DNA from: a virus
Lineage: Duplodnaviria > Heunggongvirae > Uroviricota > Caudoviricetes
Virus record (IMG/VR): IMGVR_UViG_2579778674_000002
Span: 1 to 7,629 of that record
Direction: 5' to 3' (one strand)
Length of the DNA: 7,629 nucleotides
Position numbers and translations under genes: made by a program. Of the stretch, positions 1 through 7,629 are shown piece after piece. The notes below the pieces were generated by a model. The model was not told where the DNA came from. It searched no databases and saw only the letters and a list, made by a program, of their open reading frames with translations. Positions within the stretch are counted from its first letter, which is position 1. Each line of letters begins with the position of its first letter.

Positions 1-657
1 TTTTTCCGTGAGAGCTATCCCTTCACCACGGAGAAAGTCTATCTCTCACAAATTCCGGGGCTGGTAAACATGGCGCTGTACGTTTCGCCGATTGTTTCCG
101 GTGAGGTTATCCGCTCCCGTGGCGGCTCCACCTCTGAATTTACACCGGGATATGTCAAGCCCAAGCATGAGGTGAATCCGCAGATGACCCTGCGTCGCCT
201 GCCGGATGAAGATCCACAGAATCTGGCGGACCCGGCTTACCGCCGCCGTCGCATCATCATGCAGAACATGCGAGACGAAGAGCTGGCCATTGCTCAGGTC
301 GAAGAGATGCAGGCAGTTTCTGCTGTGCTTAAGGGCAAATACACCATGACCGGTGAAGCCTTCGATCCGGTTGAGGTGGATATGGGCCGCAGTGCGGCGA
401 ACAACATCACACAGTCCGGTGGTACGGAGTGGAGCAAGCGTGACAAGTCCACGTATGACCCGACCGACGATATCGAAGCCTATGCGCTGAACGCCAGCGG
501 TGTGGTGAATATCATCGTGTTTGATCCGAAAGGCTGGGCGCTGTTCCGTTCCTTCAAAGCCGTCAGGGAGAAGCTGGATACCCGTCGGAGCTTGCCATTG
601 CTCAGGTCGAAGAGATGCAGGCCGTTTCTGCTGTGCTTAAGGGCAAATACACCATGA
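1..657 (+). CDS. E: Major capsid protein (lambda gpE-like), N-terminal part; 5' end lies upstream of the window; authentic frame ends at 587 where an internal duplication shifts the frame (ORF runs out of frame to the stop at 657)
   Basis: Frame 1 is open from position 1 (FFRESYPFTTEKVYLSQIPGLVN-MALYVSPIVSGEVIRSRGG...). The translation matches lambda major capsid protein E as I recall it. After 587 the frame reads a second copy of the same DNA out of frame (…DTRR-SLPLLRSKRCRP…) and terminates. Confidence 0.88.
   Translation, partial: FFRESYPFTTEKVYLSQIPGLVNMALYVSPIVSGEVIRSRGGSTSEFTPGYVKPKHEVNPQMTLRRLPDEDPQNLADPAYRRRRIIMQNMRDEELAIAQVEEMQAVSAVLKGKYTMTGEAFDPVEVDMGRSAANNITQSGGTEWSKRDKSTYDPTDDIEAYALNASGVVNIIVFDPKGWALFRSFKAVREKLDTRRSLPLLRSKRCRPFLLCLRANTP
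280..587 (+). repeat. Copy 1 of a 308-bp imperfect tandem direct repeat internal to gene E
   Basis: Base-by-base comparison with 588-895 at offset 308 gives 8 mismatches (copy-1 positions 285, 315, 395, 402, 423, 438, 441, 483), about 97.4% identity. Confidence 0.95.
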
Positions 658-895
658 CCGGTGAAGCCTTCGATCCGGTTGAGGTGGATATGGGCCGCAG
701 TGAGGCGAATAACATCACACAGTCCGGTGGCACGGAGTGGAGCAATCGCGACAAGTCCACGTATGACCCGACCGACGATATCGAAGCCTACGCGCTGAAC
801 GCCAGCGGTGTGGTGAATATCATCGTGTTTGATCCGAAAGGCTGGGCGCTGTTCCGTTCCTTCAAAGCCGTCAGGGAGAAGCTGGATACCCGTCG
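588..895 (+). repeat. Copy 2 of the 308-bp imperfect tandem direct repeat internal to gene E
   Basis: Same alignment as copy 1. The unit length of 308 is not a multiple of 3, so it produces a +2 frameshift in E. Confidence 0.95.
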
Positions 896-1256
896 CGGCT
901 CTCATTCCGAGCTGGAGACAGCGGTAAAAGACCTGGGTAAAGCGGTGTCCTATAAGGGGATGTATGGCGATGTGGCCATCGTCGTGTATTCCGGACAGTA
1001 CGTGGAAAACGGCGTCAAAAAGAACTTTCTGCCGGACAACACGATGGTACTGGGGAACACTCAGGCACGCGGTCTGCGCACCTATGGTTGTATTCAGGAT
1101 GCGGATGCATTGAGTGAGGGTATTAATGCGTCTCCTCGTTATCCGAAAAACTGGAAGACATCCGGCGATCCGGCGCGTGAGTTCACCATGATTCAGTCAG
1201 CACCGCTGATGCTGCTGGCTGATCCTGATGAGTTCGTGTCCGTACAACTGGCGTAA
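615..1256 (+). CDS. E: Major capsid protein (lambda gpE-like), C-terminal part in frame 3, restored by the second copy of the duplicated segment; TAA stop at 1254-1256
   Basis: ORF 615..1256 translates MQAVSAVLKGKYTMTGEAFDPVEVDMGRSEANN…GSHSELETAVKDLGKAVSYKGMYGDVAIVVYSGQYVENG…FVSVQLA, which continues the gpE sequence to its C-terminus. The first 43 aa repeat residues already encoded at 307-435 in frame 1. Confidence 0.88.
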   Translation: MQAVSAVLKGKYTMTGEAFDPVEVDMGRSEANNITQSGGTEWSNRDKSTYDPTDDIEAYALNASGVVNIIVFDPKGWALFRSFKAVREKLDTRRGSHSELETAVKDLGKAVSYKGMYGDVAIVVYSGQYVENGVKKNFLPDNTMVLGNTQARGLRTYGCIQDADALSEGINASPRYPKNWKTSGDPAREFTMIQSAPLMLLADPDEFVSVQLA

Positions 1257-1257
1257 T

Positions 1258-1285
1258 CGTGGCCCTTCGGGGCCATTGTTTCTCT
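1258..1285 (+). terminator. Stable hairpin (stem tggccc/gggcca with ttcg tetraloop, 1260-1275) followed by a T-rich tract, between the E stop and FI start; possible partial intrinsic terminator or mRNA-stabilising/translation-modulating structure
   Basis: Perfect 6-bp inverted repeat TGGCCC-TTCG-GGGCCA at 1260-1275, then TTGTTTCTCT. It begins 4 nt after the E TAA stop and ends about 22 nt before the FI ATG. Confidence 0.4.
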
Positions 1286-1297
1286 GTGGAGGAGTCC

Positions 1298-1693
1298 ATG
1301 ACGAAAGATGAACTGATTGCCCGTCTTCAGGTGCTGGGTGAGCAACTGAACCGTGATGTCAGCCTGACGGGGACGAAAGAAGAACTGGCACTCCGTGTGG
1401 CAGAGCTGGAAGAGGAGCTTGATGACACGGATGACGCTGCCGGTCAGGACACGTCTGTCAGCCCGGAAAATGCGCTGACCGGGCATGAAAATGAGGTGGT
1501 GTCAGCGCAGCCAGGGACCGTGACTGATACGGCTGCTCTGGTCACGGTTGTGGCACTGGTGACGCTGCATACCGATGCACTTCACGCCACGCGGGATGAA
1601 CCTGTGGCATTTGTGCTGCCGGGAACGGCGTTTCGTGTCTCTGCCGGTGTGGCAGCCGAAATGACAGAGCGCGGCCTGGCCAGAATGCAATAA
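1298..1693 (+). CDS. FI: Head assembly / DNA packaging protein (lambda gpFI-like)
   Basis: ATG at 1298 preceded by GGAGGAG (1289-1295). Translation MTKDELIARLQVLGEQLNRDVSLTGTKEELALRVAELEEELDD…ERGLARMQ matches lambda FI as recalled. The ORF-track start at 1259 (GTG) lies inside the hairpin and has no RBS. Confidence 0.9.
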   Translation: MTKDELIARLQVLGEQLNRDVSLTGTKEELALRVAELEEELDDTDDAAGQDTSVSPENALTGHENEVVSAQPGTVTDTAALVTVVALVTLHTDALHATRDEPVAFVLPGTAFRVSAGVAAEMTERGLARMQ

Positions 1694-1704
1694 CGGGAGG
1701 CGCT

Positions 1705-2058
1705 GTGGCTGATTTCGATAACCTGTTCGATGCTGCCATTGTCCGCGCCGATGAAACGATACGCGGGTACATGGGAACGTCAGCCACCATGACATCCGGT
1801 GAGCAGTCCGGCGCAGTAATACGTGGTGTTTTTGATGACCCTGAAAATATCAGCTATGCCGGACAGGGCGTGCGCGTTGAAGGCTCCAGCCCGTCCCTGT
1901 TTGTCCGGACTGATGATGTGCGGCAGCTGCGGCGTGGAGACACGCTGACCATCGGTGAGGAAAACTTCTGGATAGACCGGGTTTCGCCGGATGATGGTGG
2001 AAGCTGTCATCTCTGGCTTGGGCGGGGCGTACCGCCTGCCGTTAACCGTCGCCGCTGA
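1705..2058 (+). CDS. FII: Head-tail joining / head completion protein (lambda gpFII-like), GTG start
   Basis: GTG at 1705 preceded by GGGAGG (1695-1700). Translation (M)ADFDNLFDAAIVRADETIRGYMGTSATMTSGEQSG…LWLGRGVPPAVNRRR matches lambda FII. Confidence 0.9.
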   Translation: MADFDNLFDAAIVRADETIRGYMGTSATMTSGEQSGAVIRGVFDDPENISYAGQGVRVEGSSPSLFVRTDDVRQLRRGDTLTIGEENFWIDRVSPDDGGSCHLWLGRGVPPAVNRRR

Positions 2059-2069
2059 AAGGGGGATGT

Positions 2070-2648
2070 ATGGCCATACAGGGTCTTGAGCAGGCCATTG
2101 AAAACCTCAGCCGTATCAGCAAAACGGCGGTGCCTGGTGCCGCCGCAATGGCCATTAACCGCGTTGCTTCATCCGCGATATCGCAGTCGGCGTCACAGGT
2201 TGCCCGTGAGACAAAGGTACGCCGGAAACTGGTAAAGGAAAGGGCCAGGCTGAAAAGGGCCACGGTCAAAAATCCGCAGGCCAGAATCAAAGTTAACCGG
2301 GGGGATTTGCCCGTAATCAAGCTGGGTAATGCGCGGGTTGTCCTGTCCCGCCGCAGGCGTCGTAAAAAGGGGCAGCGTTCATCCCTGAAAGGTGGCGGCA
2401 GCGTGCTTGTGGTGGGTAACCGTCGTATTCCCGGCGCGTTTATTCAGCAACTGAAAAATGGCCGCTGGCATGTCATGCAGCGTGTGGCCGGGAAAAACCG
2501 TTACCCCATTGATGTGGTGAAAATCCCGATGGCGGTGCCGCTGACCACGGCGTTTAAACAGAATATTGAGCGGATACGGCGTGAACGTCTTCCGAAAGAG
2601 CTGGGCTATGCGCTGCAGCATCAACTGAGGATGGTAATAAAGCGATGA
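2070..2648 (+). CDS. Z: Tail completion protein (lambda gpZ-like)
   Basis: ATG at 2070 preceded by a G-rich RBS (GGGGGA 2061-2066). The 192-aa product MAIQGLEQAIENLSRISKTAVPGAAAMAINRV… matches lambda Z. The stop overlaps the U start (ATGA). Confidence 0.92.
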   Translation: MAIQGLEQAIENLSRISKTAVPGAAAMAINRVASSAISQSASQVARETKVRRKLVKERARLKRATVKNPQARIKVNRGDLPVIKLGNARVVLSRRRRRKKGQRSSLKGGGSVLVVGNRRIPGAFIQQLKNGRWHVMQRVAGKNRYPIDVVKIPMAVPLTTAFKQNIERIRRERLPKELGYALQHQLRMVIKR

Positions 2649-3040
2649 AACATACTGAACTCCGTGCAGCCGTACTGGATGCACTGGAGAAGCATGACAC
2701 CGGGGCGACGCTTTTTGATGGTCGCCCCGCTGTTTTTGATGAGGCGGATTTTCCGGCAATTGCCGTTTATCTCACCGGCGCTGAATACACGGGCGAAGAG
2801 CTGGACAGCGATACCTGGCAGGCGGAGTTGCATATTGAAGTTTTCCTGCCTGCTCAGGTGCCGGATTCAGAGCTGGATTCGTGGATGGAGTCCCGGATTT
2901 ATCCGGTGATGAGCGATGTCCCGGCACTGTCAGATTTGATCACCAGTATGGTGGCCAGTGGCTATGACTACCGGCGCGACGATGATGCGGGCCTGTGGAG
3001 TTCAGCCGATCTGACTTATGTCATTACCTATGAAATGTGA
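2645..3040 (+). CDS. U: Tail tube terminator protein (lambda gpU-like)
   Basis: The 131-aa product [48 protein letters not shown]…LTYVITYEM matches lambda U. The start overlaps the Z stop by 4 nt. Confidence 0.92.
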
Positions 3041-3047
3041 GGACGCT

Positions 3048-3788
3048 ATGCCTGTACCAAATCCTACAATGCCGGTGAAAGGTGCCGGGACCACCCTGTG
3101 GGTTTATAAGGGGAGCGGTAACCCTTATGCGAATCCGCTTTCAGACGTTGACTGGTTGCGTCTGGCAAAAGTTAAAGACCTGACGCCCGGCGAACTGACC
3201 GCTGAGTCCTGTGACGACAGTTATCTCGATGATGAAGATGCGGACTGGACCGCGACCGGGCAGGGTCAGAAATCCGCCGGAGATACCAGCTTCACGCTGG
3301 CGTGGATGCCCGGAGAGCAGGGGCAGCAGGCGCTGCTGGCGTGGTTTAATGAAGGTGATACCCGTGCCTATAAAATCCGCTTCCCGAACGGCGCGGTCGA
3401 TGTGTTCCGTGGCTGGGTCAGCAGTATCGGTAAGGCGGTGACGGCGAAGGAAGTGATCACCCGTACGGTGAAGGTCACCAATGTGGGACGCCCGTCGATG
3501 GCTGAAGATCGCAGTACGGTAACAGCGGCAACCGGCATGACCGTGACGCCTGCCAGCACCTCGGTGGTGAAAGGGCAGAGCACCACGCTGACCGTGGCAT
3601 TCCAGCCGGAGGGCGCAACCGACAAGAGCTTCCGTGCGGTGTCTGCGGATAAAACAAAAGCCACCGTGTCGGTCAGTGGTATGACCATCACCGTGAAAGG
3701 TGTTGCTGCAGGCAAGGTCAACATTCCGGTTGTATCCGGTAATGGTGAACTTGCTGCGGTTGCAGAAATCACCGTCACCGACAGTTAA
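3048..3788 (+). CDS. V: Major tail tube protein (lambda gpV-like) with C-terminal Ig-like (Big_2-type) domain
   Basis: ATG at 3048 preceded by GAGGA (3039-3043). The 246-aa product [24 protein letters not shown]…AEITVTDS matches lambda V. The C-terminal ~80 aa have the beta-rich T/V/S composition typical of the V Ig-like domain. The ORF-track start at 3018 overlaps U and has no RBS. Confidence 0.93.
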
Positions 3789-3803
3789 TCCGGAGAGTCA
3801 GCG

Positions 3804-4226
3804 ATGTTCCTGAAAACCGAATCATTTGAATATAACGGTGTGAGCGTCACGCTTTCTGAACTGTCAGCCCTGCAGCGTATTGAGCATCTCGCCCTGCTGA
3901 AACGACAGGCAGAACAGGCGGGAACCAGTGTCAATCGACAGGTGAGCGTGGAAGATCTCGTCAGAACCGGTGCTTTTCTGGTGGCGATGTCCCTGTGGCA
4001 TAACCATCCGCAGAAGACAAAGATGCCATCCATGAATGAAGCCGTTAAACAAATTGAGCAGGAAGTGCTTACCACCTGGCCTACAGAGGCAATTGCTCAG
4101 GCTGAAAATGTGGTAATGCGTCTGTCCGGTATGTCTGAGTTTGTTGTGAATGATGCACCTGAACAGGCAGATGACGCCGGGCCTGCAGAGCCTGTTTCTG
4201 CGGGAAAGTGTTCGACGGTGAGCTGA
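3804..4226 (+). CDS. G: Tail assembly chaperone (lambda gpG-like)
   Basis: ATG at 3804 preceded by GGAGAG (3792-3797). The 140-aa product MFLKTESFEYNGVSVTLSELSALQRIEHLALLKRQ…PVSAGKCSTVS matches lambda G. Confidence 0.92.
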   Translation: MFLKTESFEYNGVSVTLSELSALQRIEHLALLKRQAEQAGTSVNRQVSVEDLVRTGAFLVAMSLWHNHPQKTKMPSMNEAVKQIEQEVLTTWPTEAIAQAENVVMRLSGMSEFVVNDAPEQADDAGPAEPVSAGKCSTVS

Positions 4227-4642
4227 GTTTTGCCCTGAAACTGGCGCGTGAGATGGGGCGACCCGACTGGCGCGCCATGCTTGCCGGGATGTCATCCACG
4301 GAGTATGCCGACTGGCACCGCTTTTACAGTACCCATTATTTTCATGATGTTCTGCTGGATATGCACTTTTCCGGGCTGACGTACACCGTGCTCAGCCTGT
4401 TTTTCAGCGATCCGGATATGCATCCGCTGGATTTCAGTCTGCTGAACCGGCGTGAGGCTGACGAAGAGCCTGAAGATGATGTGCTGATGCAGAAAGCGGC
4501 AGGGCTTGCCGGAGGCGTCCGCTTTGACCCGGACGGGAATGAAGTTATCCCCGCTTCCCCGGATGTGGCGGGCATGACGGAGGATGACGTAATGCTGATG
4601 ACAGTATCAGAAGGGATCGCAGGAGGAGTCCGGTATGGCTGA
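3804..4642 (+). CDS. T: Tail assembly protein G-T, made by programmed -1 ribosomal frameshift at GGGAAAG (4202-4208): G frame 3804-4208, then T frame 4208-4642
   Basis: The slippery heptamer G GGA AAG sits in the G zero frame, five codons before the G stop. The -1 frame is open from 4208 to TGA at 4640-4642 and encodes VFDGELSFALKLAREMGRPDWRAMLAGMSSTEYADWHRFY…, the lambda T region. There is no RBS or ATG for an independent T start. Confidence 0.85.
4202..4208 (+). promoter_or_regulatory. -1 programmed ribosomal frameshift slippery heptamer (X XXY YYZ = G GGA AAG)
   Basis: Exact GGGAAAG in the correct phase relative to the G reading frame, with the T frame open in -1. Confidence 0.85.
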
Positions 4643-7067
4643 ACCGGTAGGCGATCTGGTCGTTGATTTAAGTCTGGATGCGGCCAGATTTGACGAGCAG
4701 ATGGCCAGAGTCAGGCGTCATTTTTCCGGTACGGAAAGTGATGCGAAAAAAACAGCGGCAGTCGTTGAACAGTCAATGAACCGGCAGGCGCTGGCTGCAC
4801 AGAAAGCGGGGATTTCCGTCGGACAGTATAAAGCCGCCATGCGTATGCTTCCTGCACAGTTCACCGACGTGGCCACGCAGCTTGCAGGCGGGCAGAGTCC
4901 GTGGCTGATCCTGCTGCAACAGGGTGGTCAGGTGAAGGACTCCTTCGGCGGTATGATCCCCATGTTCAGGGGACTTGCCGGTGCGATCACCCTGCCGATG
5001 GTCGGGGCCACCTCGCTGGCAGTGGCGACCGGTGCGCTGGCGTATGCCTGGTATCAGGGCAACTCAACCCTGTCCGATTTCAACAAAACGCTGGTCCTTT
5101 CCGGCAATCAGTCGGGTCTGACGGCAGATCGTATGCTGGTCCTGTCCAGAGCCGGGCAGGCGGCAGGGCTGACGTTTAACCAGACCAGCGAGTCACTCAG
5201 CGCACTGGTTAAGGCTGGGATAAGCGGTGAGGCTCAGATTGCGTCCATCAGCCAGAGTGTGGCGCGTTTCTCCTCTGCATCCGGCGTGGAGGTGGACAAG
5301 GTCGCTGAAGCCTTCGGGAAGCTGACCACTGACCCGACGTCGGGGCTGACAGCGATGGCACGCCAGTTCCATAACGTGACGGCGGAGCAGATTGCGTATG
5401 TTGCTCAGTTACAGCGTTCCGGCGATGAAGCCGGGGCATTGCAGGCGGCGAACGAGGCCGCAACGAAAGGGTTTGATGACCAGACCCGCCGCCTGAAAGA
5501 GAACATGGGCACGCTGGAGACCTGGGCAGACAGGACAGCGCGGGCATTCAAATCCATGTGGGATGCGGTGCTGGATATTGGTCGTCCTGATACCGCGCAG
5601 GAGATGCTGATTAAGGCAGAGGCTGCGTTTAAGAAAGCAGACGACATCTGGAATCTGCGCAAGGATGATTATTTTGTTAACGATGAAGCGCGGGCGCGTT
5701 ACTGGGATGATCGTGAAAAGGCCCGTCTAGCGCTTGAAGCCGCCCGAAAGAAGGCTGAGCAGCAGACTCAACAGGACAAAAATGCGCAGCAGCAGAGCGA
5801 TACCGAAGCGTCACGGCTGAAATATACCGAAGAGGCGCAGAAGGCTTACGAACGGCTGCAGACGCCGCTGGAGAAATATAGCGCCCGTCAGGAAGAACTG
5901 AACAAGGCACTGAAAGACGGGAAAATCCTGCAGGCGGATTACAACACGCTGATGGCGGCGGCGAAAAAGGATTATGAAGAGACGCTGAAAAAGCCGAAAC
6001 AGTCCGGCGTGAAGGTGTCTGCGGGCGATCGTCAGGAAGACAGTGCTCATGCTGCCCTGCTGACGCTTCAGGCAGAACTCCGGACGCTGGAGAAGCATGC
6101 CGGAGCGAATGAGAAAATCAGCCAGCAGCGCCGGGATTTGTGGAAGGCAGAAAGTCAGTTCGCGGTACTGGAGGAGGCGGCGCAACGTCGCCAGCTGTCT
6201 GCACAGGAGAAATCCCTGCTGGCGCATAAAGATGAGACGCTGGAGTACAAACGCCAGCTGGCTGCACTTGGCGACAAGGTTACGTATCAGGAGCGCCTGA
6301 ACGCGCTGGCGCAGCAGGCGGATAAATTCGCACAGCAGCAACGGGCAAAACGGGCCGCCATTGATGCGAAAAGCCGGGGGCTGACTGACCGGCAGGCAGC
6401 GCGGGAAGCCACGGAACAGCGCCTGAAGGAACAGTATGGCGATAATCCTCTGGCGCTGAATAACGTCATGTCAGAGCAGAAAAAGACCTGGGCGGCTGAA
6501 GACCAGCTTCGCGGGAGCTGGATGGCAGGCCTGAAGTCCGGCTGGAGTGAGTGGGAAGAGAGCGCCACGGACAGTATGTCGCAGGTAAAAAGTGCAGCCA
6601 CGCAGACCTTTGATGGTATTGCACAGAATATGGCGGCGATGCTGACCGGCAGTGAGCAGAACTGGCGCAGCTTCACCCGCTCCGTGCTGTCCATGATGAC
6701 AGAAATTCTGCTTAAGCAGGCAATGGTGGGGATTGTCGGGAGTATCGGCAGCGCCATTGGCGGGGCTGTTGGTGGCGGCGCATCCGCGTCAGGCGGTACA
6801 GCCATTCAGGCCGCTGCGGCGAAATTCCATTTTGCGACCGGGGGATTTACGGGAACCGGCGGAAAATATGAGCCAGCGGGGATTGTTCACCGTGGTGAGT
6901 TTGTCTTCACGAAGGAGGCAACCAGCCGGATTGGCGTGGGAAATCTCTACCGGCTGATGCGCGGCTATGCCACCGGCGGGTATGTCGGTGGCACCGGAAA
7001 CCGGCGGTTATGTCGGTACACCTGGCAGCATGGCGGACAGCCGCTCGCAGGCGTCCGGGACGTTTGA
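4635..7067 (+). CDS. H: Tail tape measure protein (lambda gpH-like); authentic frame runs 4635-6989, then a 28-bp insertion shifts the frame and the ORF ends prematurely at 7067
   Basis: ATG at 4635 overlaps the T stop (ATGGCTGA). Translation MAEPVGDLVVDLSLDAARFDEQMARVRRHFSG… with a hydrophobic segment, a long E/K/Q/A-rich coiled-coil region and a Gly-rich C-terminal region matches lambda H up to …LMRGYATGGYVG, after which the sequence is unrelated (GTGNRRLCRYTWQ…). Confidence 0.92.
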   Translation: MAEPVGDLVVDLSLDAARFDEQMARVRRHFSGTESDAKKTAAVVEQSMNRQALAAQKAGISVGQYKAAMRMLPAQFTDVATQLAGGQSPWLILLQQGGQVKDSFGGMIPMFRGLAGAITLPMVGATSLAVATGALAYAWYQGNSTLSDFNKTLVLSGNQSGLTADRMLVLSRAGQAAGLTFNQTSESLSALVKAGISGEAQIASISQSVARFSSASGVEVDKVAEAFGKLTTDPTSGLTAMARQFHNVTAEQIAYVAQLQRSGDEAGALQAANEAATKGFDDQTRRLKENMGTLETWADRTARAFKSMWDAVLDIGRPDTAQEMLIKAEAAFKKADDIWNLRKDDYFVNDEARARYWDDREKARLALEAARKKAEQQTQQDKNAQQQSDTEASRLKYTEEAQKAYERLQTPLEKYSARQEELNKALKDGKILQADYNTLMAAAKKDYEETLKKPKQSGVKVSAGDRQEDSAHAALLTLQAELRTLEKHAGANEKISQQRRDLWKAESQFAVLEEAAQRRQLSAQEKSLLAHKDETLEYKRQLAALGDKVTYQERLNALAQQADKFAQQQRAKRAAIDAKSRGLTDRQAAREATEQRLKEQYGDNPLALNNVMSEQKKTWAAEDQLRGSWMAGLKSGWSEWEESATDSMSQVKSAATQTFDGIAQNMAAMLTGSEQNWRSFTRSVLSMMTEILLKQAMVGIVGSIGSAIGGAVGGGASASGGTAIQAAAAKFHFATGGFTGTGGKYEPAGIVHRGEFVFTKEATSRIGVGNLYRLMRGYATGGYVGGTGNRRLCRYTWQHGGQPLAGVRDV

Positions 7068-7224
7068 GCAGAATAACCATGTGGTGATTAACAACGACGG
7101 CACGAACGGTCAGATAGGGCCACAGGCACTGAAGGCTGTTTATGACGTAGCCCGTAAGGCGGCAATGGATGTTGTGACCGGGCAGATGCGCGATGGTGGT
7201 CTGTTCTCCGGAGGTGGACGATGA
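6967..7224 (+). CDS. H: C-terminal portion of the tape measure protein H displaced into frame 1 by the 28-bp insertion (H-matching from about 7018); probably not independently expressed
   Basis: The frame-1 ORF encodes …GYVGTPGSMADSRSQASGTFEQNNHVVINNDGTNGQIGPQALKAVYDVARKAAMDVVTGQMRDGGLFSGGGR, the expected gpH C-terminus. Its stop overlaps the M start (ATGA at 7221-7224), as expected for H. Confidence 0.8.
   Translation: MPPAGMSVAPETGGYVGTPGSMADSRSQASGTFEQNNHVVINNDGTNGQIGPQALKAVYDVARKAAMDVVTGQMRDGGLFSGGGR
6990..7017 (+). repeat. 28-bp insertion in H that partly repeats the adjacent sequence (accggcggNtatgtcggt at 6972-6989 and 7000-7017)
   Basis: 18-bp direct repeat with one mismatch, 28 bp apart. 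Removing 6990-7017 restores a continuous H reading frame of 853 codons. Confidence 0.85.
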
Positions 7225-7550
7225 AAACCTTCCGCTGGAAAGTGAAACCCGGTATGGATGTGGCTTCGGCCCCTTCCGTCAGGAAGGTGCGCTTTGGTGA
7301 TGGCTATTCTCAGCGTGCGCCTGCCGGGCTGAACGCCGACCTGAAAACGTACAGCGTGACGCTTTCTGTTCCCCGCGAGGAGGCCACGGCACTGGAATCG
7401 TTTCTGGCAGAGCACGGGGGCTGGAAGGCCTTTCTGTGGACGCCGCCTTATGGCTACCGGCAGATAAAGGTGACCTGCGCAAAATGGTCGTCGCGGGTCA
7501 GTATGTTGCGTGTTGAGTTCAGCGCAGAGTTTGAACAGGTGGTGAACTGA
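7221..7550 (+). CDS. M: Minor tail protein (lambda gpM-like)
   Basis: The 109-aa product MKTFRWKVKPGMDVASAPSVRKVRFGDGYSQRAPAGLNADLKTYSVTLSVPREEATALESFLAEHGGWKAFLWTPPYGYRQIKVTCAKW… matches lambda M. The start overlaps the end of H. Confidence 0.9.
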   Translation: MKTFRWKVKPGMDVASAPSVRKVRFGDGYSQRAPAGLNADLKTYSVTLSVPREEATALESFLAEHGGWKAFLWTPPYGYRQIKVTCAKWSSRVSMLRVEFSAEFEQVVN

Positions 7551-7629
7551 TGCAGGATATCCGACAGGACACACTGAATGAATGCACCCGTGCGGAGCAG
7601 TCGGCCAGCGTGGTGCTCTGGGAAATCGA
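7550..7629 (+). CDS. L: Minor tail protein (lambda gpL-like), 5' part only; continues beyond the window
   Basis: ATG at 7550 overlaps the M TGA (TGATG). Translation MQDIRQDTLNECTRAEQSASVVLWEI matches the lambda L N-terminus. The frame is open to the window end. Confidence 0.8.
   Translation, partial: MQDIRQDTLNECTRAEQSASVVLWEI

Follow-up and report, generated by a model that had tools for sequence, protein, structure and literature searches.

Two out-of-register inserts in a lambda-like prophage record of Escherichia coli FCH1, a probable false duplication of natural alleles made in assembly

False (heterotype) duplication is a documented product of genome assembly (Kelley & Salzberg 2010, PMC2864568; Ko et al. 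2022, PMC9516828). In the described cases both allelic versions of a region are retained and adjoin in one scaffold, and the copies differ by natural polymorphisms, mimic a recent duplication and break gene models. The locus described here, a tandem repeat in the capsid gene E of a lambda-like prophage, resembles these cases in all of these respects. The described duplications, however, stem from diploid haplotypes, whereas ours would involve paralogous prophages in a haploid bacterium, whose presence we infer. Half-depth coverage, discordant read pairs and a gap between the copies are diagnostic of the described duplications; the present record has no N gap between the copies. Our literature search returned this general class only and no account of such an artefact specific to SOAPdenovo. 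The closest described gene is E of phage lambda, with which the locus shares about 96% DNA identity and the lambda gene order from E to L, but the 308-nt out-of-frame repeat sets it apart from lambda E and is absent from 102 related loci and from complete E. coli genomes. Like other lambda-like phage mosaics, the E alleles compared here are patchworks of common polymorphisms; natural mosaics, however, are joined in register and keep the reading frame, whereas the join in this E gene lies 308 nt out of register.

The window, meaning the whole stretch of DNA that was analysed (positions 1–7629, + strand), is the entire record AYKD01000080.1 (7,629 nt) of the draft assembly GCA_000511545.1 of E. 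coli FCH1, a strain obtained from the faeces of a Dutch pig farmer (de Been et al. 2014). The strain was sequenced with paired 90-bp Illumina reads from 500-bp inserts and assembled with SOAPdenovo v1.05, with k picked from 21 to 63 and the fewest scaffolds wanted (de Been et al. 2014). The resulting draft has 162 scaffolds, the highest number among the farm-isolate rows in the accessible part of the S1 table, and the same study reported that near-identical blaTEM paralogues were mis-assembled in the data set to which FCH1 belongs (de Been et al. 2014). The FCH1 genome measures 5.06 Mb versus 4.73 Mb in the sister isolate FCP1. The genes of the window run in lambda order, E, FI, FII, Z, U, V, G, T, H, M and L, with E lacking its 5′ end and L its 3′ end, and the E/FI region is 95.9% identical to lambda E/FI at the DNA level. 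The record contains no run of N, and neither of the two junctions described below is marked as a scaffold join. We also noted that MW057783.1, named Campylobacter phage CJLB-4, matches the window E/FI region at 95.9% and at the same coordinates as lambda's own match; the entry appears to be lambda DNA deposited with Campylobacter as the named host.

The features of the E region are as follows.

1–278, + strand: 5′ part of E from codon 27, resident allele (P1); the record begins inside the gene, which is about 96% identical to lambda E
279–586, + strand: extra 308-nt unit of another allele (X; copy 1 when read as 280–587), whose deletion uniquely restores a natural sequence
279, 285, 315, 395, 402, 423, 438, 441 and 483, + strand: X-specific bases A, G, A, C, C, T, G, T and T, respectively
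587–894, + strand: 308 nt of the resident allele (copy 2 when read as 588–895), running on into the rest of E, with 0 mismatches to six independent loci
580–595, + strand: junction ...ACCCGTCG/GAGCTT... (586/587/588), where homology amounts to a single ambiguous G and nothing more
70–657, + strand: N-terminal E fragment, which shifts frame at the junction and stops at 657
615–1256, + strand: C-terminal E fragment of 213 aa with a precomputed Pfam match to Phage_cap_E (PF03864)

Positions 280–587 and 588–895 form a head-to-tail tandem repeat with a period of 308 nt and 8 differences (285/593, 315/623, 395/703, 402/710, 423/731, 438/746, 441/749 and 483/791), and similarity ends at once beyond both edges. 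A preliminary description of this DNA had counted 6 synonymous differences and 2 amino-acid changes when each copy is read in the gpE frame, a list that we reproduced exactly: CTG/CTT, GCA/GCC, AAC/AAT, GGT/GGC, CGT/CGC and TAT/TAC are silent, while GCG/GAG (A/E) and AAG/AAT (K/N) are not. It had also read this as the mark of purifying selection. Between the copies, dS is 0.092, dN 0.0085 and dN/dS 0.09 (69.2 synonymous and 236.8 non-synonymous sites). The probability of at least 6 of 8 changes being synonymous ranged from 0.002 to 0.01 for a transition bias (kappa) of 1 to 8, so the synonymous excess is beyond chance. Measured against the unduplicated natural prophage, the extra unit is uniquely 279–586, which adds a ninth difference (279 A versus 587 G) that is likewise synonymous and brings the synonymous share to 7 of 9. 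To the preliminary description we add that the unit breaks the E frame, because 308 is not a multiple of 3: as 308 = 3 x 102 + 2, read-through from copy 1 changes frame and stops at 657, and E falls into the open reading frames 70–657 and 615–1256. Neither copy lies within a functional gene as assembled. Membership of the gpE family is supported by the sequence match to PF03864, while the single frame of about 341 codons is missing from the assembled record; deleting 279–586 gives back an uninterrupted E frame.

We compared both copies with 102 related E loci drawn from IMG/VR, complete E. coli genomes, drafts, metagenomes and Logan assemblies, none of which had the two-unit arrangement. Copy 2 was identical to 6 independent natural loci. 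No exact match to copy 1 was found among the 102 loci, the nearest being L002 (strain RM10042), L019 and L060 with 1 mismatch each, at position 501; copy 1 agreed with the allele group of these three at all of the differing sites. In a neighbour-joining tree the two copies fell in separate clades, and 32 of the 102 natural alleles were nearer to copy 1 than copy 2 is. The median pairwise difference within the repeat stretch, taken over the first 82 alleles, was 8 sites and equals the distance between the copies, and at each of the 9 differing sites the same two bases occur as a natural polymorphism. These comparisons support the view that the copies represent two independently maintained natural E alleles, and they effectively exclude duplication in place followed by drift. 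The preliminary description had proposed two functional alleles in place of a decayed duplicate and suggested a phylogeny against known E alleles as a check; both the identity of copy 2 with natural loci and the placement of each copy in a different clade, copy 1 at a single mismatch from its own, are in agreement with that proposal.

The sequence to the left of the repeat limits how the two alleles can have been joined. Positions 1–278 had 0 mismatches to L094, L096, L097, L098, L100 and L102, with which they share the rare states 60G and 216A; the four alleles that resemble X all lack these states. The flank is therefore of the P1 type and the foreign bases form a patch inside P1, limited to positions 279–483, the first of them sitting exactly where the resident copy restarts. 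A plain illegitimate crossover would leave all sequence to the left of the junction foreign, so the resident flank argues for the assembler. The preliminary description had suggested a joining of E segments from two phages or prophages, by recombination or by an assembler; the assembler is favoured by our results, but a simple join of two segments does not hold, since 1–278 and copy 2 belong to the same allele. The X patch and P1 share some rare states, for example 324T and 411A. Two groups of candidate donors of copy 1 were set aside: five tail-only remnants with a 5′-cut E (L088, L090, L092, L099 and L104), of which L088 is P1-like and differs from the left path at 10 positions, against 13–14 for each of the others, and prophages of the L005 type, which carry the foreign H allele described below and whose E is too divergent to align to the window with default BLAST.

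A second, smaller insert was found in the tape-measure gene H.

4635–7224, + strand: gene H, split by the insert into 4635–7067 (810 aa) and 6967–7224 (85 aa)
6972–6999, + strand: 28-nt out-of-frame insert; starts from 6972 to 6980 are all equivalent

The insert consists of the corresponding stretch of another H allele (ACCGGCGGGTATGTCGGT followed by GGCACCGGAA), after which the resident version, ACCGGCGGTTATGTCGGT-ACACC, is written. Apart from one G-for-T base, the foreign text ACCGGCGGGTATGTCGGT-GGCACCGGAA fits a natural H allele that 9 of about 100 loci carry, and H measures 853 aa once the 28 nt are removed. One locus, L019, has both the X-type E patch and the foreign H allele, so a single second prophage could supply the E and the H pieces. 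If the inserts are artefactual, Y-type H (…TATGTCGGTGGCACCGGAAG…) would be expected on a second FCH1 contig together with X-type E.

With 279–586 and 6972–6999 taken out, the window becomes a sequence of 7,293 nt that aligns without gaps to independent assemblies. It differed by 1–3 mismatches over the full 7,293 nt from L094/L097 (GCA_053562755.1), L096 (an ENA metagenome), L098 and L102, by 1 mismatch in 6,885 nt from L100 (a Logan assembly) and by 3 in 6,973 nt from L103. The sole mismatch to L094/L097 over 7,293 nt is 1516 G/T, in FI. Five of the loci matching the restored sequence encode an intact E (341 aa) and an intact H (853 aa). L103 likewise has an intact E, and its gene table lists an intact H, of which the alignment covered only part. 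No other placement of the 308-nt deletion gives as good a match, and the extra unit begins exactly at the first SNP that separates the two alleles. By these alignments the window reads as a known natural prophage plus two short inserts of another allele's version. The best matches among complete genomes, EC416 and its relatives, were considered as nearest kin and rejected, as they reach only 98.6% and the draft and metagenome loci are much closer. Of the 66 mismatches to EC416, 51 fall within window positions 1500–3700 (FI to V) and the flanks are near-identical; mosaicism of this kind, produced by recombination, is ordinary among lambda-like prophages.

We searched for both junctions and for the broken proteins well beyond the comparison set. 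The E junction was contiguous in none of 5,426 complete E. coli genomes, among which lambda-like E regions occurred at 4,859 places in 3,300 genomes with a maximum of 5 per genome, and the exact junction string was absent from GTDB representative genomes, IMG/VR and JGI metagenomes. Similarly, the H insert was found in no complete E. coli genome, and its junction string was absent from GTDB representatives and IMG/VR. The broken E (213 aa) and H (810 aa) proteins were found on no contig other than AYKD01000080.1 among about 15 billion sequences. Recurrence of the junction in independent related sequences, which would speak for a genuine duplication, was not observed.

Overall, the tandem repeat is very probably a false heterotype duplication made in assembly and not a biological one, and between the two routes named in the preliminary description the assembler is much more likely than unequal recombination. 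Three features expected of such an artefact coincide here: the copies correspond to two distinct existing alleles, removing one copy restores a known sequence, and the 90-bp reads are shorter than the 308-nt unit. The FCH1 strain or its read set would contain a second lambda-like prophage whose E and H depart from P1 by scattered SNPs, and the two alleles would form bubbles in the de Bruijn graph with shared nodes between them. At the fork at E position 279, scaffolding or gap filling would have written the foreign branch (279–483) together with the shared node (484 to 586/587), and the P1 branch from 279 on would then have been written after the foreign one, with no single branch chosen. The insert in H would be a small-scale repeat of the same error, and no read would contain CCCGTCGGAGCTT or GGCACCGGAAACCGGCGG. 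E and H are most likely intact in the cell.

The ends of the record and the edges of the inserts can be compared with such a graph. The record starts 59 nt before a P1-type SNP at position 60 (G in 8 of 86 alleles) and ends 59 nt after a P1-type SNP at 7570 (C in 10 of 60), which suggests that it is bounded by de Bruijn forks at the odd value k = 59, within the range of k used by the authors; such forks would arise if a second allele were present in the reads, for which the record ends are indirect support. On its left, the 308-nt insert begins where a 62-nt stretch shared by the alleles, between the SNPs at 216 and 279, runs out, which also fits k = 59. A value of k = 59 accounts for the right edge at 586/587 only given a second-allele SNP at E position 588 (seen in 11 of 82 alleles), and it fails on the geometry of the 28-nt insert, for which a gap-filling step would be needed. 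Site 7630, just beyond the 3′ end of the record, is commonly polymorphic (C 39, T 21).

An alternative explanation is a real chimeric tandem duplication, in which co-resident lambda-like prophages, or a prophage and an infecting phage, recombined through a homologous join near E position 279 and an illegitimate join of 586 to 279, with an independent template switch writing 28 nt into H. We consider this unlikely. A real event would accommodate the fact that both copies are natural alleles, the frequent co-residence of lambda-like prophages, the known decay of prophages by frameshift and the lack of an N gap at either junction. However, it would need two rare events of like shape within 7.3 kb, each at or beside the first SNP that distinguishes the alleles, and the P1-type left flank would call for an extra crossover between 216 and 279. 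The junction, moreover, is without microhomology, the remainder of the window is 1–3 mismatches from intact prophages with no further signs of decay, the junctions and the broken proteins were found nowhere else searched, and the source is a scaffolded short-read assembly in which a 90-bp read cannot span the unit. That both inserts are real, so that the record would show a prophage just after two out-of-register template switches with a co-resident prophage that inactivated E and H at once, appears slightly more doubtful still; if true, the record would capture in nature how illegitimate exchange between prophages can lead to their domestication.

A version of the assembly artefact with a second strain, contaminating or mixed into the sequenced culture, and not a second FCH1 prophage as the source of the second allele fits the evidence at hand equally well. 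We nevertheless regard it as very improbable, because clean MLST agreement was reported for the strains of the study (de Been et al. 2014) and multi-prophage genomes are common enough without contamination. Least probable of all is a 308-nt duplication in place, after which the copies drifted or one of them underwent gene conversion with another prophage as donor: the head-to-tail layout is what it would produce, but copies in a broken frame would be unconstrained, yet 7 of the 9 differences are synonymous (P about 0.002–0.01 on the 8-site count), all 9 sites hold bases of existing natural alleles, copy 2 and its flanks have 0 mismatches so that all divergence would lie in one copy and recreate a known haplotype, and the gene-conversion version would still need a duplication seen in no other genome.

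Taken at face value, the record describes a defective prophage with broken capsid and tape-measure genes, and two unique “partial” proteins derived from it are now in protein databases. With an assembly artefact as the preferred explanation, FCH1 most likely carries an undamaged prophage, essentially the same as others in E. coli. The main value of the case is one of caution, as a worked example for recognising this type of artefact in bacterial drafts. For a suspected repeat, one can ask whether each copy matches a natural allele of its own, whether a SNP that distinguishes these alleles marks the start of the extra unit, whether deletion of that unit restores a known sequence and whether the record ends lie one k-mer from such SNPs.

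The tail-only loci L088, L090, L092, L099 and L104 showed an organisation of their own. Each of these E. coli loci holds a lambda-like remnant that runs from a 5′-cut E through the tail genes (e.g. L090, positions 1–9959), with E cut at a point corresponding to about window position 152–160 and called as an open reading frame of 254 aa. The remnant directly adjoins a satellite-like element with a D5_N primase, an SSB, its own Phage_cap_E gene of 346 aa, a head-decoration gene and AlpA, and a Nu1-like small terminase was found in two of these satellite-like elements (L090 and L092). In two genomes the remnant occurs alongside a complete prophage of the same type (L086 with L090; L092 with L093). 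The remnant and its neighbour may together represent a satellite that encodes a capsid and is linked to a tail module of lambda type.
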